Origin: an uncultured Gammaproteobacteria bacterium
GTDB taxonomy: Bacteria; Patescibacteriota; Microgenomatia; Levybacterales; UBA12049
Length of the DNA stretch: 64,000 nt
Assembly: GCA_964515545.1 (NCBI GenBank)
Contig: CAZERI010000003.1
Location: 21,224-85,223, forward strand
Direction: 5' to 3'
Shown here: one piece after another, positions 5,889 to 64,000 of the stretch
Layout: each line of letters begins with the position of its first letter
How positions within the stretch are numbered: the first letter of the stretch is position 1
Notes under the pieces: generated by a model
Databases searched by the model: none
What the model was told of the DNA's origin: nothing
Seen by the model: the letters and a program-made list of their open reading frames with translations, nothing else
Translations under genes and position numbers: made by a program

Positions 5889-6716
5889 ATGGAAATAGGA
5901 GGAGAAATAGAAAAAAATAAAGATAATAATGAGTTAGGTACGCCACTCCAAAAACTTGATTCATACTGGACAGAAGTGGAGCATATGCCAGTTCCAGATT
6001 CTATTCCTAGTATAAGCCTTGATGAATTTCCTGAAGAACATAGAATAGAAATGTTTCATCTTGCCCGTGACGCCTGGGCCTCCCTTTATGAGCCGGATGT
6101 AGTAATTAAGGAGCTTCAAGAAGGAGAGCCGGGTCCGCATCAGAGGAGTTATCTAAAGAATCTAAGAAAGCACGGACTTATTCTCCGTGCAGGATTTCTG
6201 ACACTAGATGGGAGGCACTTAGCCCCTGAGAACCACTGGTTATTCTTAAGACTTTTAGGAGAATTAAACGATAGATATAATACACCTCAGAGAGCTGAAT
6301 CAGCTGCAAGATTAGCTGACTTTGTTAAGGAGAGATATATGACATTAGATGGATTAGAATTTTTCCCCGCAAGCGACGAATCATTTGCTGGAAATTATAA
6401 GAGGGATCTAGAAAGAGTTACAGAGATTAATTCCTCTCCTACTATGTCTGCAAAAGACTTTCATTCGATGAGGAAGCTTCTTCGTAATACTATGAATATG
6501 TTTCGTCTTTCAGGAACGCTGACATCAGATCCTCAGATGAGAAAGCGGGCACGATATATGCAGGACTTAAATGAGACCTTAGGGCATAAGCAGGATCAAT
6601 TGGTTGAGCAGGATCTTCAAGGTGTAGTTAACTATCAAGATGCCACGGTAATTGTCCCCCATGAGGTAAGGGCTAGAATTAACGGATTTATTAGAGCAAA
6701 TCCTACAGACAGTTAG
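5889..6716 (+). CDS. hypothetical protein (orphan, locally GC-richer)
   Basis: Clean 275-aa ORF with no recognisable motif. Confidence 0.45.
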   Translation: MEIGGEIEKNKDNNELGTPLQKLDSYWTEVEHMPVPDSIPSISLDEFPEEHRIEMFHLARDAWASLYEPDVVIKELQEGEPGPHQRSYLKNLRKHGLILRAGFLTLDGRHLAPENHWLFLRLLGELNDRYNTPQRAESAARLADFVKERYMTLDGLEFFPASDESFAGNYKRDLERVTEINSSPTMSAKDFHSMRKLLRNTMNMFRLSGTLTSDPQMRKRARYMQDLNETLGHKQDQLVEQDLQGVVNYQDATVIVPHEVRARINGFIRANPTDS

Positions 6717-8554
6717 AATAAGTCAGATTCTCCAGTTACAATACTTCGATTAACATTATGCTCAATAACATGTTCTGGAAGTTCGATAAGGAAGCGAGAG
6801 ATAGTATTTGTTGCACGTTGGCCAAAGAAAAGTCTTCTTCGGGCATGGGTCAGAAAGAGTCTCTCTTTGGCTCTTGTCATTCCTACATAGCAAAGTCTCC
6901 GTTCTTCTTCTAACTCCTGCTTGTCCATAAGAGCGCGTGAATGAGGGAAGAGTCCTTCTTCCATCCCAATCATAAAAACCACAGGGAACTCTAACCCCTT
7001 GGCAGCGTGGAGTGTCATGAGTGTTACTGCATTCTTGAATTGTTTTTCTCTCGGGCCTGATGTATATTCCTGCTCAACCAGTGCCACATTTTCTAAGAAC
7101 TCTGTCATACTAGGGAAATTGATTGCAACTGATCTAAGTTCTTTAATGTTTTCTAACCTGGCTCTATCTTCTTCATCATGCTCATCATAGATCTCTAAGT
7201 AGCGTGTTGATTCGAGAACGCTATCTAGTAGTTCAATAGTTGGCACATCTTCTGTATCTTGGTGCTTCTCTAGATATTGTAAAAATCTTTCAAGCCGTGC
7301 TTTCCCCAATTTTTCTATCCGTTTAAGAGAGATTGTCTCATTGCGATTGGCGATATGGCGAAGATATGACAGGACATCTTTGATTTCTTTCCGTTCATAA
7401 AATCTTGTCCCGCCAATTAGTGTATAAGGAATACTATGATGGAGGAACGCCTCCTCAATGACCCGAGATTGTGCGTTGGTTCTGTATAAGACTGCTACAT
7501 CATTTAATTTACTAACCCCTAAACTAATGATTGTCCGGATAATAAAGTCAGCCTCATCTTGTTCGCTTGTTGCCTCATAAATTTCTAAGGCTTCACCGCT
7601 AGGGTTCTCAGTCCATAGCTTAAGAACAGGGTGGGAAGTGTTCCTGGAAATTACTGTCGAAGCAGCATCTAAAATTTTTTGGGTAGATCGATAGTTTTGG
7701 GAAAGAGAGAATGTCTTTGTGTCTTTAAAGTCGTTGGTAAATTTAATAAGGTTCCGATAATCAGCACCTCGCCAGCTGTAGATGCTCTGTGAAAAATCCC
7801 CTACAACGCAAATATTTTTATTTTTTTCAGCTAATAATTTGCTTAAGACATATTGAGCTCTATTCGTATCCTGGTACTCATCAACTAAAATATAGCGAAA
7901 GCGATTTTGATATTTTTTTAAAATTTCTGGATTTTGTTTGAATAATTTTACTGTTTGGAGAATAAGATCATCAAAGTCCAAGGCATCATTCTCTTTCAGA
8001 ATCTTTTGATAGAGGGGATAAATTTTGGCTACAGTCTGCTGGAAGATCCCTCTGGCAAAAGTACTGTACTCATCTTCATAAATCAACTCATTTTTAGCAC
8101 CAGATATTGTTGCAAGGATAGATGCTGGTTTGAAATCTTTAGGAGATATCAATAATCTATGCATTGCTTCTTTTATGACGTCCATCTGATCATTATCATC
8201 ATAAATAACAAAACTACGTGAAATGCCAAGGTGTTCTCCGTCAAAACGTAAAATTCTGGCACAAAGGGAGTGAAAAGTTGCAACAAATGGCTGTCCAGTA
8301 GGAATGCCTTCTTCAAGAAGAGAAAAGAATTTTTGCATTCGCTCCTTCATCTCTCCTGCAGCTTTGTTAGTAAAGGTTACCATAAGAATTTCCTCAGGTG
8401 TTATACCTTTTTCTAAAATAAGGTACATTACTTTATAGGTAAGAACGCGTGTCTTTCCGGATCCAGCCCCTGCTAGAATTATCATTGGTCCATCAGTATT
8501 GAGGACTGCTTTTTTCTGTTCAGGATTTAGGTCATTGAGAAGTGTATGGTCCAT
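6713..8554 (-). CDS. ATP-dependent DNA helicase, UvrD/PcrA/Rep family
   Basis: N-terminal Walker A AGAGSGKT. Helicase motifs FTNKAA, VDEYQDTN, TLHAAKGLEF and MTRAKERL. Confidence 0.85.
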   Translation of the reverse strand: MDHTLLNDLNPEQKKAVLNTDGPMIILAGAGSGKTRVLTYKVMYLILEKGITPEEILMVTFTNKAAGEMKERMQKFFSLLEEGIPTGQPFVATFHSLCARILRFDGEHLGISRSFVIYDDNDQMDVIKEAMHRLLISPKDFKPASILATISGAKNELIYEDEYSTFARGIFQQTVAKIYPLYQKILKENDALDFDDLILQTVKLFKQNPEILKKYQNRFRYILVDEYQDTNRAQYVLSKLLAEKNKNICVVGDFSQSIYSWRGADYRNLIKFTNDFKDTKTFSLSQNYRSTQKILDAASTVISRNTSHPVLKLWTENPSGEALEIYEATSEQDEADFIIRTIISLGVSKLNDVAVLYRTNAQSRVIEEAFLHHSIPYTLIGGTRFYERKEIKDVLSYLRHIANRNETISLKRIEKLGKARLERFLQYLEKHQDTEDVPTIELLDSVLESTRYLEIYDEHDEEDRARLENIKELRSVAINFPSMTEFLENVALVEQEYTSGPREKQFKNAVTLMTLHAAKGLEFPVVFMIGMEEGLFPHSRALMDKQELEEERRLCYVGMTRAKERLFLTHARRRLFFGQRATNTISRFLIELPEHVIEHNVNRSIVTGESDLF

Positions 8555-20402: not shown

Positions 20403-22508
20403 ATGGCAGATACTAAAAGACAAGTTCCACTAGATAAGATTCGTAATATAGGCATTATTGCCCATATTGATGCGGGCAAAACTACTACTACTGAGCGTAT
20501 CCTTTTCTATACTGGCCGTACCTATAAGATCGGTGATATTGATGAGGGTAACACTCAGATGGATTGGATGGAGCAGGAAAAAGAGCGCGGAATTACTATC
20601 GTCTCAGCTGCTACCACTACCTTTTGGAAAGATCATCGTATTAATATCATCGATACTCCGGGCCACGTTGACTTTACCGCTGAAGTAGAGCGCTCACTTC
20701 GTGTTCTTGACGGGGGTATTACTGTACTTGATGCAGAAGAGGGCGTTCAGTCTCAGTCAGAGACTGTCTGGCGTCAAGCAGACAAGTACAAAGTTCCCCG
20801 TATCTGTTTTGTTAACAAGATGGATAAGCTAGGAGCTGATTTTCTAGCAACTGTTAAAAGTATTGAAGACAGACTTGGAGCAAATCCAGCTATCATGGTA
20901 CTTCCAATTGGCGCTGAAAATACTTATGTAGGTAACGTCGATCTTCTTACTCGCCAAACCATTACATGGGGTTCTGATGAGCTGGGTGCTAAATTTGAAC
21001 TTGGTACTGATATCCCTGAAGAGATGAAAGCTCAGGTTGAAGAGTACCGTAGTAAGCTGATCGAAAAAATTGCAGAGACGGATGATGCAATGCTTGAAAA
21101 ATATCTTAGTGGTGAGGAGCCAACTATAGAGGAACTTAAGAAAGCTCTTCGTGCAGCAGTTATCGCGTATAAATTAGTCCCTATTTATGCAGGTACATCA
21201 CTTCGTAATAAAGGCGTTCAGCCACTGCTTGATGCAGTTTTGGATTACCTTCCTTCCCCAGTTGATCTTAAAGAGGTAAAAGGTACTAATCCAAAAACTG
21301 GTGAAGAAGAGACAAGGGAGTTAGTCCCAGAAGCCCCTTTTTCAGGCCTTGCGTTTAAGATCCAGAATGATCCTCACGTAGGAAAACTTACGTATTTTAG
21401 AGTCTACTCAGGAAAAATCGAGTCTGGATCATATGTCTATAACAGTACTAAAGGTATTAAAGAACGTGTAGGTAGACTTCTGTTGATGCATGCAAATGAA
21501 AGAGAAGAAATAAAGGAAGGATATTCTGGAGAGATTGTAGCAATTGTTGGGCTTAAGGATACAGGAACTGGAGATACCCTCTGTGATGAGGCAAAGCCAA
21601 TTGTTCTTGAAAAAATATCATTCCCAGAGCCAGTTATCTCACTTGCTATTGAACCTCAGACGAAATCAGATCAGGAAAAGATGGGTTATGCAATTAAGAG
21701 GCTTACTGAAGAAGATCCAACCTTCTCAGTCAAGACTAATCATGAAACAGGCCAGACTATCATCTCAGGTATTGGTGAGTTGCAGCTTGAGGTTATGGTA
21801 GACCGCATGAAGCGGGAATTTAATGTCCAAGCAAATACCGGTGCGCCTCAGGTCGCGTACAAAGAGACTTTCCAATCTCAGGTATCAGCTGAAGGTAAGT
21901 ACATCAAACAGTCCGGAGGAAGAGGACAGTTCGGTCACTGCTGGCTTAGAATCGAGCCAAAAGAGCGTGGAGAAGGTAATGAATTTGTTAGTGAGATCAA
22001 AGGAGGAGCAATCCCTGCAGAGTTTGTTAAAGCTGTTGAAAAAGGAGTCTGGGAGACACTTGAAAATGGAGTATTACTCGGTTATCCAATTGTTGACGTC
22101 AAGGTTGCTTGCTATGACGGCTCATACCATGAGGTAGATTCTAGTGAGGTAGCCTTTAAGATTGCTGCTTCTCAAGCTATTCAAGCTGCTTCCAAAAAAG
22201 TCGAGATGGGACTATTAGAGCCTATTATGAAAGTTGAAGTCACAACTCCTTCTGAATTTATGGGAGATGTGATGGGAGATCTATCCAGTAAGCGTGGACA
22301 AATTATTGGTACTGAAGAGCGCTCCCGCGCAACTATCATTAATGCTCTTGTTCCACTAGCAGAGTTATCAGGTTACGCAACTCAAATTCGCAGTATGTCT
22401 CAAGGCCGTGCTTCTTATTACATGGAGCCAAGTCATTATGATATCGTCCCTCGTAATATCGTCGACCAGATGGTCGCCAAATCCACCTTTACCGGCCGCG
22501 TCGAATAA
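20403..22508 (+). CDS. fusA: translation elongation factor G
   Basis: [14 protein letters not shown]1 motif, [13 protein letters not shown]. Full-length (~700 aa) five-domain pattern. Confidence 0.95.
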
Positions 22509-51472: not shown

Positions 51473-52033
51473 ATGCCAGATTCTCAGATATCTACAAATA
51501 AAGAAGTATGTCCTAAATGTGGTTCCCCTCTCAGTGAAATTGTGACGACTGCAACAGGACGTAAACTACAGCGATGCTCTACTTCTTCTTGGGACCCTAC
51601 GACTCATTCAAATACAGGCTGTGATTATGTAAAGTGGCTAGAAGTAGAGCCAGAACAGCTTGAAGAAAAATGTCCAAAGTGTGGTTCTCCTCTTGTCTTA
51701 GCGGTTACCCGTTTTGGGAAAAAGATGAAGAAATGCTCTACCTCTTCTTGGGATAAAGAAGCGAAGAAAGCAATAGGCTGTGATTATGTTGAATGGATCA
51801 ACGGTACTACAGAGCAGCTTGATGAGGACTGCCCAGAATGTGGAGCAAAGCTGGTCTTGTATACAACAGCCAATGGGAAAAAGATGAAGAAATGCTCTAC
51901 CTCAGGTTGGGATAGGGCCTCTAAGAAACCAACTGGGTGTACTTATGTATATTGGCTTAAACCTTCAGAATATGCATCCGTAGCATCTCAGGATACTGGT
52001 GAAGAATTCCTCCCACCTGAGCCGGAGGAATAA
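51473..52033 (+). CDS. protein composed of three tandem C4 zinc-ribbon repeats
   Basis: Three ~53-aa repeats, each CP(K/E)CG-x16-C-STS(S/G)WD-x7-GC-(D/T)YV-W, beginning at nt 51509, 51671 and 51830. Confidence 0.6.
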   Translation: MPDSQISTNKEVCPKCGSPLSEIVTTATGRKLQRCSTSSWDPTTHSNTGCDYVKWLEVEPEQLEEKCPKCGSPLVLAVTRFGKKMKKCSTSSWDKEAKKAIGCDYVEWINGTTEQLDEDCPECGAKLVLYTTANGKKMKKCSTSGWDRASKKPTGCTYVYWLKPSEYASVASQDTGEEFLPPEPEE

Positions 52034-52320
52034 TGGCTAAGTATAAAGAAGTAGTCAGCGACATGCTGGAATATAATAAAGAAGATTTCCTCTCATTTAG
52101 AAAGCTCCATGATCTTTATGCAGATAATCCTAAAGAGTATCAGGCTGCATTTAATGAGGAAGGGGAGAAAGTTCTCCGGATTATCAGACGCTATGAAAAT
52201 ATCCTTTGTGGAAAATCTGAAAGCGGAAAGTATGGTAAATTTTCAACATCTCTCTCTGACAAATTCTGGAACGAGATTAGAATTCATTTCCCCAAAATTG
52301 ACGCTATAGGTACCTTGTAA
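52033..52320 (+). CDS. hypothetical protein, translationally coupled (TAATG) to the zinc-ribbon protein
   Basis: Start overlaps the upstream stop. No motif. Confidence 0.45.
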   Translation: MAKYKEVVSDMLEYNKEDFLSFRKLHDLYADNPKEYQAAFNEEGEKVLRIIRRYENILCGKSESGKYGKFSTSLSDKFWNEIRIHFPKIDAIGTL

Positions 52321-52363: not shown

Positions 52364-53212
52364 ATGCAAGTCAAACCTTCTCAAAAGACGCAGAACATTA
52401 GCTATTTTAAAAAAAGAAAATTAGTTATAATTTTAATCATTCTCATAGTTAGCCTGTTTTTTCTCAGTAGCAGTTACTTTTTATCTGATCAGAGTATTTT
52501 GAAAAAGCGAAGCAATCCCCTTGTTACTAATACACAGCATGATTTACCACAAGGAGTTGCAATTGGGCAGGATGAGCAAGGAGGTCAGGATAAGAATAAT
52601 GTCTATTTTGGACCGATTCAGCTAAAAAATTCAGGTTATATAACAAATAGTCTTGATTCTTTTGTGAAAGAAAATAACTCTACAGGGTCATCTAATGAAT
52701 CAGACTCTACGATGCCTGGAGGGGGAGAACATCTGAATATATCTTTTGAAGATTTCCTCCATCATCCGATTGACTCAATATCTGAATTGAGTACATCTTT
52801 TATTAACGATTATGTTAATAATGGGAGAAAAACGACATTGATTAAACTTGTAGATGCCATCTCTCGTTATTATGTAACCTATAATAGATTTCCCATAACC
52901 CAATCAGATCAACCTTCATATGATTGGGTTGATGAGATGGTAAATAAGAATGAGATGTCAGGGGTCTATAGCTATGTCTTACAAAAAACTTCTCCAGTTA
53001 GTGATTGTGGAGATGTTGAGCAAACAGGTTATTGTTATGATGCAAATGATGATAAGGCGATTATATTCGTTCAGCTTAACCAAACCGCTCCTTCATCATG
53101 TGGTGACAGCCAGCTCTTTTTCCTTTGGTCGTCTGAAGATAACAAACTAGGTGAGGTATGTTTAGAAAGTCCTCCTTCTTCCTTTTCTGGATTTACGTAT
53201 ATTGATCAATAG
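52364..53212 (+). CDS. hypothetical secreted/anchored protein with Cys-containing C-terminal domain
   Basis: N-terminal TM/signal. Six Cys in the C-terminal half. Confidence 0.45.
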   Translation: MQVKPSQKTQNISYFKKRKLVIILIILIVSLFFLSSSYFLSDQSILKKRSNPLVTNTQHDLPQGVAIGQDEQGGQDKNNVYFGPIQLKNSGYITNSLDSFVKENNSTGSSNESDSTMPGGGEHLNISFEDFLHHPIDSISELSTSFINDYVNNGRKTTLIKLVDAISRYYVTYNRFPITQSDQPSYDWVDEMVNKNEMSGVYSYVLQKTSPVSDCGDVEQTGYCYDANDDKAIIFVQLNQTAPSSCGDSQLFFLWSSEDNKLGEVCLESPPSSFSGFTYIDQ

Positions 53213-53654
53213 AAATTAGTTTCGGATAATAAGAGATTGTTTGAAGTGTTTTTTTGAGAAATTCTGACAGAGGAGAGTGCGTTATCTGGTAAGGATTTAC
53301 CCACTGGTAGTCACTATGTTCAGCACTAAGTATAAGAGATTCAGAATTACTTGTAAAACAAAGGAAAGCAATTCTGACTACCTGTACAGATGGATTTTTC
53401 TTTGAAAATCCCGATATTACTGAAATTGGATGCAGTACTTCCGTATCGAGATTTGTCTCCTCTTTAATTTCTCTCAATGCTCCCTGAGAGGGTTGCTCGC
53501 CATATTCTAAAGCTCCTCCTGGCATTTCCCATAGTCCAGGGTGTGAGTCATGAAGAGAGCGCTTTACAATAAGAATCTCCTGTGAAGCGTTAAAAATAAG
53601 ACCGTATACAGCTACTCGTTGATAGTTATTAAGCATATTATTTTTCAAAGACAT
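53193..53654 (-). CDS. NUDIX hydrolase
   Basis: Nudix box GGALEYGEQPSQGALREIKEETNL. Confidence 0.75.
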   Translation of the reverse strand: MSLKNNMLNNYQRVAVYGLIFNASQEILIVKRSLHDSHPGLWEMPGGALEYGEQPSQGALREIKEETNLDTEVLHPISVISGFSKKNPSVQVVRIAFLCFTSNSESLILSAEHSDYQWVNPYQITHSPLSEFLKKTLQTISYYPKLISIDQYT

Positions 53655-54132
53655 TGCGTATTAATACATCCTTAACTTGTAAGCTCTCCGTTTGATCATC
53701 AGCTTTTGATATTATATCAATAATAAGTTTTTCACCAGTGAGAATCCTTTCCAGCCAATCTTTTGTATCTTCAAACATATCCTGATAAGGGATTGCAGTA
53801 AAGTCGAACCAGCGTGGTCTAACACCGGGAGTCATACGAGCCTGTCCTTGAAAGTTTTCACAGAGAAAAATTGTAATAGTTAATGTTTCTTCTCGAACTT
53901 CCTCAGGATTGACAGTAGAGAGATGCATGACACCGACCTGTTCAAGGTCATGTGTATATACGCGAAGCTTTACTTCTTCGTACAGCTCACGGACAGCTGC
54001 TTCTTCAGGTTTCTCTTTGTCTTCAACAAATCCACTAATACCATTCCAGGTAGTTCTACCAGGTCTATAGTTACTTTCTGCTAGTAAAATCTGGTCATTG
54101 TGGATAACAAAAGTAAGAACTGCTTTTTTCAT
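53638..54132 (-). CDS. NUDIX hydrolase
   Basis: Nudix box GFVEDKEKPEEAAVRELYEEVKL. Confidence 0.7.
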   Translation of the reverse strand: MKKAVLTFVIHNDQILLAESNYRPGRTTWNGISGFVEDKEKPEEAAVRELYEEVKLRVYTHDLEQVGVMHLSTVNPEEVREETLTITIFLCENFQGQARMTPGVRPRWFDFTAIPYQDMFEDTKDWLERILTGEKLIIDIISKADDQTESLQVKDVLIRNVFEK

Positions 54133-54168
54133 GTTTGTATTATAGCTTGAGCTTTATAAAAGTGGAAA

Positions 54169-55308
54169 TTAGAGCTGGACAGGAGAATTAGTGATGAAAA
54201 ACTGTCCGATAGACTCTCTCAGTAGTTTGATCCCATTCTTATTTTTCACTGAAATAAAAAGAGGATGATAGTCTGAAAAATCTTTTTTTAGGTTCTGTAG
54301 CTGTTCATTAGTAAGCATATCTATTTTATTAAAGACCAGAATCTTTGGTTTATCCATGATGTTTAGCTCGTGTAAAACGTGAGAAACAGTCTGCAGCTTT
54401 CTAGCAAGATCTGGGTCTGTTGCATCTATTACTTGGATCAAAAGGTCAGCGTAGACTGATTCCATCAACGTTGATCGGAAGGCGTCAATAAGCGTGGCAG
54501 GAAGGTTATGAATAAATCCAATAGTATCTGAAATAATAAATTCTTGAGATGAATTAGGGAGAATGAATTTGCCGACATGACTGTCAAGAGTGGCAAAAAG
54601 AGCGTTTTTAACAAACTGACTTTTATTAGTTAAAATATTAAAAAGTGACGTTTTACCAGCATTCGTATATCCGACTATTGAAATAGTGTTAATCCCTACT
54701 CTTCGTCTTCTCTCCATCTGATGTTCTCTTGTGTATGCTTGTTTTTTTAATTTTTCCTCAACTTTTTTAATCTGGCTGCGCCAGTGCCGTTTCATAAGCT
54801 CAGTATTGGTTTCTCCAATTCCTCTAGTTCCGATACTCCCTCCCTGCCGTGAAAGTACGTATCCTAAGCCATATATCCGTGGTCCCATATGTCTCATTGC
54901 AGCAAGTTCTATCTGAAGCCTAGCTTCCGTTGTATTTGCATGACGGGAAAAAATATGGAGGATAAGATCCACTCTATCCCAGACTTCTATTTTAGGATTT
55001 GCTCTTTCAAGTGTTTTTTTTATATCAAAGATATGGCCTGGTTTAACGATTGCATTGAGGACAACTATATTAATAGATTGCTCTTTAACTAATGCAGCAA
55101 TCTCTTCTATTTTTCCGCTGCCTAAATACAGACCTTTATCATGCACCTCTCTATGCTGGATGACATATTCAACTACCTTTCCTTCATAGGAATCTACCAA
55201 ATCTCTTAATTCTTTTATATCGTAGAATGCTTCCTGTTCAGAAAGTGTGCGGGGAATAATACTTGCGATAAGAAAACGATTTAAAGAAGAATCTTTAGTC
55301 TCAATCAT
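54169..55308 (-). CDS. hflX: GTPase HflX
   Basis: HflX N-terminal domain and G domain (VGYTNAGKTSLFN; DTIGF; NKID). Confidence 0.8.
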   Translation of the reverse strand: MIETKDSSLNRFLIASIIPRTLSEQEAFYDIKELRDLVDSYEGKVVEYVIQHREVHDKGLYLGSGKIEEIAALVKEQSINIVVLNAIVKPGHIFDIKKTLERANPKIEVWDRVDLILHIFSRHANTTEARLQIELAAMRHMGPRIYGLGYVLSRQGGSIGTRGIGETNTELMKRHWRSQIKKVEEKLKKQAYTREHQMERRRRVGINTISIVGYTNAGKTSLFNILTNKSQFVKNALFATLDSHVGKFILPNSSQEFIISDTIGFIHNLPATLIDAFRSTLMESVYADLLIQVIDATDPDLARKLQTVSHVLHELNIMDKPKILVFNKIDMLTNEQLQNLKKDFSDYHPLFISVKNKNGIKLLRESIGQFFITNSPVQL

Positions 55309-58474: not shown

Positions 58475-59581
58475 ATGGCTCGATCTTCAAGTAACGCTAA
58501 ATCTTCAGCAGTCGTCCAGCAGCAGGCAGATTCCACTCAGAAATTAGAATCAATCAAGATGGCAATGGACCAGATTGAAAAACAGTTTGGTCGTGGTTCA
58601 ATAATGCGTTTTGGTGAAAGCATGGGGAAACTTGATATTTCTGTTATTTCTACAGGCTGTCTTCCGCTAGACCTCGCACTCGGTGTTGGAGGCCTGCCCC
58701 GCGGAAGAATTATAGAAATCTATGGCCCTGAGGCGTCAGGTAAAACTACTGTTTCCCTCTCAACAATAGCTCAGGCTCAAAAGCATGGAGGAGTTGCAGC
58801 TTTTATAGATGCGGAGCATGCTCTTGATCCCCAGTGGGCAGAACGGATAGGTGTTAAGCTCGATGAGTTATTAATTTCTCAGCCCGATACAGGAGAGCAG
58901 GCTTTAGAAATTGCAGAGAGTTTAATCCGCAGCGGGGGAATTGATGTATTAGTTATTGATTCGGTTGCAGCCCTTGTTCCAAGAGCTGAGATTGAAGGAG
59001 AAATGGGAGATTCCGTCATGGGACTTCAGGCTCGTCTTATGTCTCAGGCCCTCCGTAAGCTGACGGGTGTCATCTCAAAGTCAAAGACAGTTGTTATCTT
59101 CACTAATCAACTCCGACAGAAAATTGGAGTGATGTTTGGTAATCCTGAGACAACAACAGGAGGCCTGGCGCTTAAATTCTATGCTTCTATTCGTATGGAT
59201 GTAAGAAAAATTGAGACCATTAAAGATGGTGATAAAGTTATTGGGTCTAGGCATCGAGTTAAGATCGTTAAAAATAAAGTTTCTACTCCTTTTAGGCTGG
59301 CTGAATTTGACGTTTTTGAACATGGTATTTCACGAGAAGGTGGAATTTTAGATGTAGGAGTTGAGATGAACGTTCTAACGAAGTCAGGAGCATTCTTCCG
59401 ATATGATGAAAAGATGATTGGTCAAGGGAAAGCTGCTGCTATTGATTGGTTAAAAGAGAATCAAGAAGAGACGAAAAAAATAGTTCAGGAGATAATGAGC
59501 AAGAGTAAAGACGGAGGTATGCCGGTTGCTGTCGGTGTTGAGGAAGATGAAGAAGAAGAACCTCTACCACCTGTCCAATAA
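58475..59581 (+). CDS. recA: recombinase RecA
   Basis: GPEASGKTT Walker A. Classic RecA sequence throughout. Confidence 0.95.
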
Positions 59582-59587
59582 TAGGTA

Positions 59588-60049
59588 ATGGACTCTTTTG
59601 AGAAATACTATATAGCGGTTATTAGGCTACTTACTCGTAGACCCCGTTCAGAAAAAGAACTTTTTGATTACCTCCTTAAGAAAAAAGCCCCCTTAGCTAT
59701 TAGTAATGCTGTAATTGCGAAGGTTCAAGAACAGCATTTTCAAAGTGATTTAGATTTTGCTAGGTGGTGGGTCCAGGGTAGAACTCGGTATAAAGCTAAA
59801 AGTAATTTAATAATCAAATTGGAGCTTCGTCAGAAAGGTATTAGTAATGAAATAATTCAGTCAGCATTAGAGGAAAAATCTGATGATTATAAAACTGACT
59901 TAGAAAAAGCAGAAATAACCGCGAGGAAGTATATAAAGCGAATTATCCACTTATCTAGAAATGATCAATATCGTCGGATGAGTTCATATCTTTCTCAGAA
60001 AGGATTTGATTATGATACTATCAGACGAGTAATTGACGATATATTATAA
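59588..60049 (+). CDS. recX: RecX-like regulatory protein
   Basis: Immediately downstream of recA. Helical-repeat protein of about 150 aa with RecX-like sequence. Confidence 0.5.
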   Translation: MDSFEKYYIAVIRLLTRRPRSEKELFDYLLKKKAPLAISNAVIAKVQEQHFQSDLDFARWWVQGRTRYKAKSNLIIKLELRQKGISNEIIQSALEEKSDDYKTDLEKAEITARKYIKRIIHLSRNDQYRRMSSYLSQKGFDYDTIRRVIDDIL

Positions 60050-62336: not shown

Positions 62337-64000
62337 TCAATCTCTAGGAATACCACAAATCATTTTATATTCACAATTTTTACAGAAAATACTTCCTGTA
62401 CAATGAAACTGACTGAATTGGATTTCTTCAGCTTTCTTTATAATTTTGTCTTTTGTTATCTCTAATTCTTCTTTAGATCTCGTCGTAGATATTTTTTTGT
62501 TTGACTCAATATAGTAAAGAGTAAGCAAAATCTCATCTGGAGATTTATTAAAAATTTCATCTCTCACATTGGCTGCTGCTAGTGCATAAAATGAGAGTTG
62601 AAAATCTTCTTTAACTTTCTTTTCATCAGGGATATTACTGCCTGTTTTGTAATCAATGATTTCGATTCTTCCATCTGATAATTTGTCGATTCTATCGATA
62701 CGTCCACCAACTTTTAATTTACTCTGCTGACCTGCCGGATGGCTCAGCCAGAAGTTAAAAGGCATCTCGATGGCGATGGTATCGGGAGGGGCAGTAAGGA
62801 GATTATCTGCATAAGAAAGGAGCATTCTATCAGCTTGTTCCAAGGCTTTTTGTTCATGACTTTTACTAACATATCCTTGACGCACCCAATTTTTTGTAAG
62901 AAGATCATGCATCAGGGAGGATTTAATTTTTTTATCGTTTTTGAGCTGTTGGGAGAAATCTCGTAGCGTATTATGGATACTTACGCCATAGCTTAGAGCC
63001 GGAGAAGGAAGGGTAGGGACATTAAGAATGTAGCGCAGCTTATAATGAAGTGCACAGGTTTCAAAAGTTTGTAATTGAGAATAAGAAATGTAAGTAAGAG
63101 GTGCAATCGTCGGGATGATAGATTCAGCTTTTTTATCTTTTACATGATTTGTGTTGAATACATCAAGAAGAGATAGCTGTTGACTGCTTTGATAAACATT
63201 ATTTTTCTTTATTGCTTTATCAATTACCTCATCGCCTAGTGCTTCAGAAATAAATGGAGACAATTTACGTTCTCTTTTACCTTCTGAATAGAATTTTGAG
63301 GCCGTTAAAAATAATTTATCACGTGCCCTTGTCATTGCTACATAAAAAAGCCGTCTTTCTTCCTGCAAGTTCTCATCACCACTTGGTAATTCTTCACGGA
63401 TAATATCACTCGGAACTGGGATTTGTTCTTTACGGTCTCTACTTGGGAATCTCTGGGTAACTAGGTTGACAACAAAAACTATAGGGAATTCCAGTCCTTT
63501 ACTAGAATGGACTGTGAGAATGTTGACTGCATTCTCAGCTGTCCAATCAACTTCTGCAGCCATTGGACTTTCTCCTAGCTCGAGTGACAGCTCTAGCCAG
63601 TCAACTACAGCAAAGACAGATGCATCATCCCGACTTCCGGCAAAGGAATGGAGTTTATTAAAAAATTTAGCTACATTTTGGGCTTGTCTTTCAGTTTTTA
63701 CAGATTTTGGATCTAGATAATATCCCAGCAATCCAGAGTCTTCAAAGAAATAATAAAGAATTTGACCAGCTGATTCATTTGAAATAAGTTTGAGATGCTT
63801 TTTTATAATGTCCTCAATCCTTTCAAATTTTGCTATACCTTCAGCGGTAAGACCTGCGTCTTCTTTCTGTTCGATTGCTTCAAAAATGCTTACATTATTC
63901 TTTTTAACATAGTTAAGAATTGCTGCTATATCACGTGCTGCAATGTCAAAAATTGGCATAGTAATTATTCGATAAAAAGATGAGTTATCATCAAAGTTTG
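62337..64000 (-). CDS. UvrD-family helicase C-terminal region fused to PD-(D/E)XK nuclease with C-terminal 4-Cys cluster (AddA/AdnAB-like); 5' part lies beyond the window
   Basis: Frame stays open to nt 64000. Helicase motifs TVHSSKGLEFP, YVAMTRARDKL. Nuclease domain with IDRIDKLSDGRIEIIDYKTG. CTGSIFCKNCEYKMIC. Confidence 0.6.
   Translation of the reverse strand, partial: NFDDNSSFYRIITMPIFDIAARDIAAILNYVKKNNVSIFEAIEQKEDAGLTAEGIAKFERIEDIIKKHLKLISNESAGQILYYFFEDSGLLGYYLDPKSVKTERQAQNVAKFFNKLHSFAGSRDDASVFAVVDWLELSLELGESPMAAEVDWTAENAVNILTVHSSKGLEFPIVFVVNLVTQRFPSRDRKEQIPVPSDIIREELPSGDENLQEERRLFYVAMTRARDKLFLTASKFYSEGKRERKLSPFISEALGDEVIDKAIKKNNVYQSSQQLSLLDVFNTNHVKDKKAESIIPTIAPLTYISYSQLQTFETCALHYKLRYILNVPTLPSPALSYGVSIHNTLRDFSQQLKNDKKIKSSLMHDLLTKNWVRQGYVSKSHEQKALEQADRMLLSYADNLLTAPPDTIAIEMPFNFWLSHPAGQQSKLKVGGRIDRIDKLSDGRIEIIDYKTGSNIPDEKKVKEDFQLSFYALAAANVRDEIFNKSPDEILLTLYYIESNKKISTTRSKEELEITKDKIIKKAEEIQFSQFHCTGSIFCKNCEYKMICGIPRD

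Follow-up and report, generated by a model that had tools for sequence, protein, structure and literature searches.

The window analysed here, a 64,000-nt stretch of contig CAZERI010000003.1 (contig positions 21,224 to 85,223), carries a gene for a 186-aa protein, here called ZnR, that consists of three tandem zinc ribbons and an acidic C-terminal tail. We propose that ZnR is a YrdD-like, free-standing, putative single-stranded DNA (ssDNA)-binding protein whose tail would either recruit a partner or be autoinhibitory, and we give this reading a probability of about 0.6. The proposal draws on homology to the topoisomerase ribbon family PF01396, a GRF-like predicted fold, the presence of the ZnR unit in proteins that handle ssDNA, the constraint on the sequence, the combination of basic ribbons with an acidic tail, and the precedent of Escherichia coli YrdD. 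That ZnR binds zinc and ssDNA, what its tail does and which cellular process it serves are all points that we infer. A preliminary description of the locus had suggested a nucleic-acid- or protein-binding adaptor of unknown role; a nucleic-acid role is still the most reasonable, but the protein belongs to an annotated family and has a characterised analogue in YrdD. The GRF-like fold, the GEEFLPPEPE tail, the class-wide distribution and the strong conservation go beyond that description. The features of ZnR are as follows.

51473..52033, + strand: ZnR gene, 186 aa, stop codon included (from the list of open reading frames)
51509..51637, + strand: ribbon unit 1 (C13-W55), CPKCG-x16-RC-STSSWD-x8-GCDYVKW, spacing C-x2-C-x18-C-x14-C
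51671..51796, + strand: ribbon unit 2 (C67-W108), CPKCG...FGKKMKKCSTSSWD...GCDYVEW, spacing C-x2-C-x17-C-x14-C
51830..51955, + strand: ribbon unit 3 (C120-W161), CPECG...NGKKMKKCSTSGWD...GCTYVYW; by itself this unit scores 24.6 bits against PF01396
51977..52030, + strand: acidic C-terminal tail, aa 169-186, isoelectric point (pI) 4.05 (from alignments A1 and A2, pI and model confidence)
51998-52024, + strand: tail motif G176-E-E-F-L-P-P-E-P184 (from conservation in alignments A1 and A2)

ZnR is related to topoisomerase ribbons and shares traits with zf-GRF

The best Pfam family for ZnR was PF01396 Zn_ribbon_Top1 (Topo_C_ZnRpt), which matched with 42.1 bits (E 7e-11) over three stretches. The curated gathering cut-off of this family is 32 bits, so the whole protein passes it, with a score that relies on the sum of the three units. 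PF01396 was also the best match for 73 of 79 isolated units, and each unit has four conserved Cys, as in PF01396. The units gave no match over the whole profile with its short second knuckle (C-x4-6-C, typically [YF]PxC). The best whole-model structural match of ZnR was to the C-terminal domains of E. coli TopA, and the suggestion of topoisomerase-type zinc ribbons with unusual spacing, made in the preliminary description, is thereby upheld. The ZnR units are homologues of the ribbons with which the C-terminus of bacterial topoisomerase I binds ssDNA.

The predicted fold of the long-loop unit may be nearest to the eukaryotic zf-GRF ssDNA-binding finger, as suggested by weak scores. Eight of the 79 units matched PF06839 (best E 0.0012), all below threshold, and 11 matched PF23549 GRF_2, the ‘GRF-like’ family (best E 0.024); for PF23549, whose cut-off is 27 bits, no score above 23 bits was seen, a value given by the whole protein. 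The unit scores seen all stay below the Pfam cut-offs. The zf-GRF is marked by CxC first ligands, a GRxF with Phe on β3, a long and variable Cys3-Cys4 spacer and an aromatic-Trp last strand (PMC9369019). The long spacer (14 residues) and the aromatic cluster ([YF][VI]xW after Cys4, with W55, W108 and W161 invariant) are present in the ZnR units, and CxC and GRxF are not, the units having CxxC and G-[KR]-K-[ML] at these places. Because GRF traits are mixed with a Topo-type CxxC and extra first strand, and because PF01396 remains the best family, we class the unit from its sequence features as a putative long-loop, GRF-like subtype of the topoisomerase ribbon. The whole protein reaches the PF01396 threshold and its units lack both the unit-level features of that family and the CxC and GRxF signatures; ZnR is therefore a divergent variant of a known domain, not a new kind of protein. 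Relatives already carry a loose public annotation, by NCBI as ‘topoisomerase DNA-binding C4 zinc finger domain-containing protein’ and by JGI as COG0551. The preliminary description had allowed that the repeats might turn out to be a well-known domain, and this is partly the case, through the PF01396/COG0551 annotation and YrdD.

Three diverged units of fixed layout

A repeat search of the DNA found three in-register copies, spaced 159 and 159 nt apart, and the repeat starts reported earlier (51509, 51671 and 51830) are the first Cys codons of the units (C13, C67 and C120). The unit motif quoted with them fits units 2 and 3, but unit 1 differs in its spacing, C-x2-C-x18-C-x14-C. An 87-nt pair (51715-51801 and 51874-51960) is 77% identical and includes the 30-nt stretch ‘gggaaaaagatgaagaaatgctctacctc’ quoted in the preliminary description. 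Tandem Repeats Finder reported no array in the ZnR gene, because the units are too diverged. Pairwise protein identity between the window units is 34-55% in an ungapped 53-aa register, in which the figures for unit 1 (34% and 36%) are underestimates because this unit is shifted by one residue; between-unit DNA identity is about 43-63% in the ungapped register. When anchored on the Cys residues, the family means for between-unit identity are 49-62%.

Identity of a unit with the orthologous unit in other genomes is 75-81%, compared to 49-62% with its sister units in the same protein, and the triplication is therefore older than the family. Units 2 and 3 of the window share a perfect identity of 24-30 nt. 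We considered gene conversion between units 2 and 3 as a general feature and rejected it, with mean mismatches of 3.4 within a gene and 4.3 between genomes; the perfect identity is not general and is thus no sign that gene conversion is still at work.

The first knuckle is CxxC in all units, and the Cys3-Cys4 spacing was 14 residues in all 359 units examined. The long-loop subtype has a G[KR]K[ML]KKC strand before Cys3, an invariant Trp after Cys3 and a [YF][VI]xW strand after Cys4. In the AlphaFold2 (AF2) model, unit 1 is predicted to form β strands, with a predicted local distance difference test (pLDDT) score of about 72-78.

ZnR is a core gene of Microgenomates-group Patescibacteria

Homologues of ZnR fell into 2080 clusters, of which the best 120 were used for closer analyses. 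These 120 are 176-211 aa long (all but one 176-196) and 69-89% identical. Exactly three units were present in 119 of them, so the comparison of repeat copy number that the preliminary description had called for revealed a fixed number. All 12 Cys and all six Trp are invariant across the 120 (C13, C16, C35, C50, W40 and W55 in unit 1). A HMMER search against 50%-identity representatives returned 234 representatives at E ≤ 1e-3, with one full-length ZnR representative plus fragments; since only one full-length sequence is left to represent the family after clustering at 50% identity, the family is compact.

In a scan of one genome per GTDB species, at least 373 species carried a relative. Among the best 80 species, the informatively named records were all from the Microgenomates group (Levy-, Shapiro-, Woese-, Gottesman- and Roizmanbacteria). 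Many ZnR contigs (e.g. L010, L014 and L015), some with the gene order of the window, are titled ‘uncultured Gammaproteobacteria’, ‘Pseudomonadales’, ‘Spirochaetia’, ‘Eisenbacteria’ or ‘Acidiferrales’; such record names look like placeholders or mis-assignments.

Among Patescibacteria of the Microgenomates group, ZnR is a core gene under strong constraint. Within the same genome pair, ZnR was 85% identical at L010, compared to 69% for Obg and 69% for HflX, and 77% at L011, compared to 62% for Obg and 64% for HflX. At L043 and L054 the values were 70-72% for ZnR and 50-52% for Obg.

The acidic tail and a possible mode of action

The preliminary description had noted an acidic tail, and we place it at aa 169-186; its pI of 4.05 stands against a basic ribbon region (pI 8.4). 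Within the tail, G176, E177, L180 and P181 never vary, and conservation is at least 90% at each of the five remaining positions of the GEEFLPPEP motif. The tail is predicted to be disordered because its pLDDT in the AF2 model is low. The motif is equally invariant in homologues without an adjacent gene for a 95-aa protein (e.g. P0012 and P0058), the gene that follows ZnR in the window, and the target of the tail is therefore probably something else.

We suggest that each ribbon unit would be folded round one Zn, and that a basic and aromatic face (GKKMKK, Trp and Tyr) would contact a few nucleotides per unit. The three units, on short linkers, could then bind a longer ssDNA cooperatively, like domains D5-D7 of TopA. 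The disordered acidic tail might either fold onto the basic ribbons, an autoinhibition that DNA would release, or recruit a conserved partner enzyme, as the acidic tails of SSB-type (single-stranded DNA-binding protein) proteins do.

The long-loop unit in other proteins

Outside the family, the long-loop unit was found at the C-terminus of type IA topoisomerases (P0267, P0298, P0278 and P0316), with 52% identity between P0267 and the ZnR units over about 100 aa (E 9e-17); the source of P0278 is a Mycoplasma metagenome-assembled genome. A single unit is fused to single-strand annealing proteins of the ERF (P0314 and P0319) and Rad52/22 (P0292) types. All of the identifiable contexts outside the family handle ssDNA, and this is the strongest indirect argument for the function of ZnR.

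In P0267 (769 aa) and P0298 (723 aa), Trp stands at universally conserved Gly sites, for instance ‘IWRPSTYE’ for ‘IGRPSTYA’. The substitution probably reflects lineages that use UGA as Gly (code 25) and whose UGA was read as Trp, which suggests that both are mistranslated proteins of UGA-recoded Patescibacteria.

Small one-unit proteins (P0386, P0331, P0315, P0374, P0312, P0314 and P0292) have acidic tails with an aromatic last residue, ending in ...SDEDLPF, ...EGYADF, ...RDINDY or ...DETPDF, like the C-terminal tip of SSB. From these sequences, it is possible that the one-unit tailed proteins are ssDNA-binding proteins without an oligonucleotide/oligosaccharide-binding (OB) fold that have borrowed the SSB interaction motif.

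A scan of IMG/VR viral contigs with alignment A2 recovered a ribbon-bearing protein at L093:3731-4285 and L095:3815-4306. Together with P0281, P0283 and P0299, the viral proteins make up a phage or mobile-element family of 160-185 aa with one long-loop ribbon, an N-terminal domain ‘ASVTY.L....G.P.LFT.R’ and a C-terminal helix ‘WPELW..G.TK..A...I’. Shortly downstream of the phage ribbon gene lie two genes, a conserved one for about 150 aa and one of 178-185 aa that is PD-(D/E)XK nuclease-like by eye; the pair directly adjoins the ribbon gene in L093 and is separated from it by two short open reading frames in L095. The cluster looks like a recombination module. Five small ribbon relatives tested against PHROG gave no match, and the full ZnR protein was unmatched by tblastn against the INPHARED phages.

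The downstream 95-aa gene and the wider neighbourhood

The features beyond the ZnR gene to which we refer are these.

52024..52035, + strand: junction GGAGGAATAATG, with GGAGGA, the TAA of ZnR and the ATG of the 95-aa gene (read directly from the sequence)
52033..52320, + strand: gene for a 95-aa conserved protein (from the list of open reading frames), a facultative neighbour of ZnR
52364..53212, + strand: gene for a 282-aa protein, context only, with an N-terminal membrane anchor or signal and four C-terminal Cys
53193-55308, - strand: Nudix-like and hflX genes (Pfam labels for both taken from L001 and L003)
58475-60049, + strand: recA and probable recX genes
62337-63959 and 6713-8554, both - strand: PD-(D/E)XK plus UvrD_C (AddB-like) nuclease and UvrD/PcrA helicase

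The stop codon of ZnR (TAA, 52031-52033) and the start codon of the 95-aa gene (ATG, 52033-52035) share one A, giving TAATG with a 1-nt overlap, and a Shine-Dalgarno-like GGAGGA at 52024-52029 precedes this ATG by 4-9 nt. A promoter and terminator scan gave nothing that exceeded shuffle expectation. The preliminary description had proposed a translationally coupled partner in the 95-aa protein, and although the TAATG overlap is real, the two genes adjoin in only about six of 80 species loci and lie 7-9 kb apart in four others. The genes overlap by 8 nt in L003-L005. In L008, L010, L016, L053 and L067 they are adjacent and co-oriented, with the aligned segments 33-106 nt apart. No 95-aa gene was called beside ZnR in L001 and L002, and in a Levybacteria genome (L006/L007) the 95-aa gene stands alone at 6001-6288, after greA and before two unannotated genes. 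Adjacency with overlap is thus not a conserved property of the ZnR family; given the minority adjacency and the stand-alone occurrence, the pair is no obligate unit and the link is lineage-specific.

The 95-aa protein is an independent small conserved protein. Its family comprises 184 homologue clusters, with lengths near 95 aa and no Pfam domain in any of them, and shows the conserved pattern YEN.LC.KSE.GKYGKFS..L.DKFW...FP.ID (alignment A4). Searches of the 95-aa protein against Pfam, NCBIfam, PHROGs and PADLOC and a profile search of the PDB gave no significant match.

The secreted Cys-rich protein placed downstream in the preliminary description corresponds to the 282-aa protein, which has a hydrophobic stretch at its N-terminus, an anchor or a signal, and four Cys close to its C-terminus. 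Homologues of it were found in seven loci with 37-57% identity, and the gene is syntenic in close relatives only. The family libraries gave no match for it, and PADLOC assigned no defence family to ZnR, the 95-aa protein or the 282-aa protein.

A tandem pair of Nudix-like genes, together with hflX, runs towards the ZnR cluster in convergent orientation, their labels being those of Pfam on the syntenic loci L001 and L003, and about 6 kb downstream of the cluster come recA and then a probable recX. L001 has the same order (obg, ZnR, membrane protein, Nudix, hflX, FKBP, methyltransferase, recA, recX), and so does L003 up to the point where that locus ends, but the order is not common to the wider ZnR family. 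The AddB-like nuclease and the UvrD/PcrA helicase of the window are unlinked to ZnR in other genomes. Among 84 ZnR loci, the recurrent neighbours were generic ABC ATPases (19 loci) and Obg (14 loci). Directly downstream of ZnR on the same strand, 10-12 loci have a gene that is, by eye, a KsgA/Erm-like rRNA adenine methyltransferase (e.g. L064:10535-11356).

Alternative readings

Several results weigh against a YrdD-like ssDNA-binding role for ZnR. The single units score 16.0, 26.5 and 24.6 bits against PF01396, each under the cut-off, and align only to positions 2-20 of its 39, that is to the first knuckle and the next strand. TopA ribbons bind ssDNA by stacking, and the β3 aromatics concerned (F616 and Y728 of E. 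coli TopA) lie three residues before Cys3 (PMC4678816); the same position in ZnR holds the invariant L32, M85 and M138, with no stacking aromatic. A unit profile found no significant match among PDB sequences. Clustering of the neighbourhoods of 84 loci revealed no neighbour conserved throughout and no functional hint, and neither a TopA core nor DprA, Smg or TsaC was encoded within 10 kb of ZnR in the 1.37 Mb searched. Mimicry of the SSB tail by ZnR was rejected, as ZnR ends in ...LPPEPEE, without the terminal [IL]PF, compared to ...PDDIPF in SSB.

ZnR could instead be the detached ssDNA-binding C-terminus of a split topoisomerase I, acting in trans with a ribbon-less core in the Microgenomates group. 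The nearest relatives outside the family are indeed ribbons at the C-terminus of type IA topoisomerases from elsewhere in the tree of bacteria, in lineages other than that of ZnR (P0267, P0298, P0278 and P0316), the best whole-model structural matches are the C-terminal domains of E. coli TopA, and housekeeping-level conservation would suit the essential partner of an essential enzyme. However, no TopA core was found within 10 kb in 87 loci, the 64-kb window contains no topA, ZnR has an acidic tail that TopA ribbons do not have, and a free ribbon protein implies no split enzyme because E. coli, which has the stand-alone YrdD, also retains a full TopA; we regard a split enzyme as unlikely, though credible. 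The SSB neighbourhood on large related contigs also contained no TopA. P0385, a candidate for the TopA of the ZnR lineage, was set aside, as it comes from a non-CPR (candidate phyla radiation) genome whose locus, with EzrA and dprA-topA-GIDA, was read as Firmicute-like. It is equally doubtful that ZnR is an essential, class-wide ssDNA-binding hub, a prokaryotic counterpart of zf-GRF that serves in trans as the TopA C-terminus and docks by its tail on the TopA core or RNA polymerase.

An obligate complex of ZnR and the 95-aa protein, formed through translational coupling with ZnR as the adaptor, would account for the stop/start overlap with its Shine-Dalgarno-like motif in the window, the 8-nt overlap in L003-L005 and the adjacent, co-oriented genes in five further loci, and both proteins are well conserved. 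Such a complex is nevertheless quite unlikely, considering that the genes are neighbours in about six of 80 species loci and are 7-9 kb apart in four, that the 95-aa gene is not called beside ZnR in L001 and L002 and stands alone in L006 and L007, that its 184 clusters compare with 2080 for ZnR, and that the tail motif is as invariant where it is not adjacent (P0012 and P0058). The absence of the canonical DNA-stacking aromatic would fit a role other than DNA binding. The ribbons would then form a scaffold between proteins, buffer zinc, or be a module associated with RNA or the ribosome. Translation-related genes are often near (Obg in 14 loci, the KsgA/Erm-like gene, by eye, in 10-12, and HflX), zinc ribbons occur also in ribosomal proteins and RNA polymerase subunits, to which weak matches were seen, and among GRF-containing proteins there are some, such as ZCCHC4, whose target is RNA. 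Not one of these neighbours, though, is kept throughout the ZnR family, the identified carriers of the exact unit outside it all handle DNA (TopA, ERF and Rad52), and the ribosomal and RNA polymerase ribbon matches are non-significant and cover the CxxC knuckle only, which together make a non-DNA role improbable. That the repeats are an assembly artefact, a risk raised in the preliminary description, or that the open reading frame is unreal, has a practically negligible chance: the identical protein was called on 20 contigs, with the three places shown coming from three different samples, the homologue clusters number more than 2000, the best 120 share length and layout, and the units are diverged, each nearer to its orthologous unit than to its neighbours in the protein.

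If the ssDNA-binding reading is right, a class of Patescibacteria keeps a small, constrained ssDNA-binding protein of topoisomerase ribbons beside its canonical SSB. The ribbon subtype would bridge the bacterial Topo_C_ZnRpt and the eukaryotic zf-GRF (APE2, NEIL3 and TOP3alpha), which are usually treated apart, and would be a plausible prokaryotic source of the GRF finger. Its presence on topoisomerases, phage annealing proteins and SSB-tailed small proteins would point to a portable ssDNA-binding module, and the conserved acidic motif could serve as a handle for a partner search in genetically intractable organisms. No current knowledge is overturned; the result would refine the classification of a common domain and flag a core CPR gene.

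Comparison with known systems

By analogy, the closest functional likeness of ZnR would be to E. coli YrdD and the C-terminal ribbons of TopA. The latter (PF01396; E. coli D5-D7, PDB 4RUL and 9GDA) are likewise tandem arrays of Cys4 ribbons, each about 40-50 aa long, in which the first knuckle is CPxCG and Cys3 follows a Gly-basic turn, and the long-loop unit is itself attached to type IA topoisomerase cores in other lineages. ZnR differs in that it is not joined to a topoisomerase core and has an acidic tail, in its second knuckle (C-x14-C, compared to about C-x5-C with [YF]PxC in TopA), and in having Met or Leu for the β3 aromatic together with extra invariant Trp residues and the [YF][VI]xW strand.

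YrdD is a stand-alone E. coli homologue of the zinc-ribbon region of TopA, described as having four ribbons (PMC4678816) and reported to bind ssDNA in a Zn-dependent way. Like ZnR, YrdD (b3283, COG0551) is free-standing, about 180 aa long and made of tandem topoisomerase-type ribbons only, ZnR having no other domain, and the two share a COG and a name in public annotation. In a pairwise BLASTP comparison, they were 28% identical over 140 aa with 21% gaps (E 3e-7). The ribbons of YrdD are canonical short-knuckle ones (CSQYPAC and CINYPEC; PF01396 180 bits, three matched stretches), whereas the ZnR units carry an insert of 9-10 residues between Cys3 and Cys4 that accounts for the BLASTP gaps. 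In addition, YrdD has no acidic tail and is encoded in a smf-smg-yrdD-tsaC cluster, none of whose genes lies near ZnR, and the ZnR family is much more tightly conserved, its informatively named members all belonging to the Microgenomates group. Neither the similarity nor the gene context is thus at the level of orthology with YrdD.

The zf-GRF (PF06839; APE2 5U6Z, NEIL3 7JL5, ZCCHC4 6UCA; TOP3alpha) resembles the ZnR unit in the long variable spacer between Cys3 and Cys4, the Gly-basic-x-hydrophobic before Cys3, the aromatic-x-Trp strand after Cys4 and the occurrence of both as C-terminal modules of type IA topoisomerases. ZnR has CxxC and not CxC, has G[KR]K[ML] and not GRxF, keeps the Topo-type extra first strand, and is bacterial whereas zf-GRF is eukaryotic.

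With bacterial SSB, ZnR would have in common a likely binding of ssDNA and a disordered acidic C-terminal tail with a short conserved motif. ZnR lacks the OB fold that SSB has, and PF00436, the family of that fold, was not among the 25 best families shown for it. A canonical SSB and ZnR are encoded together on one contig (L030; P0397), and the ending ...PDDIPF is found in about 100 of 120 related SSBs, compared to ...LPPEPEE in ZnR. Because the lineage keeps a canonical SSB with this ending, ZnR is no replacement for SSB, and it would act beside it as a distinct protein of topoisomerase-type ribbons.

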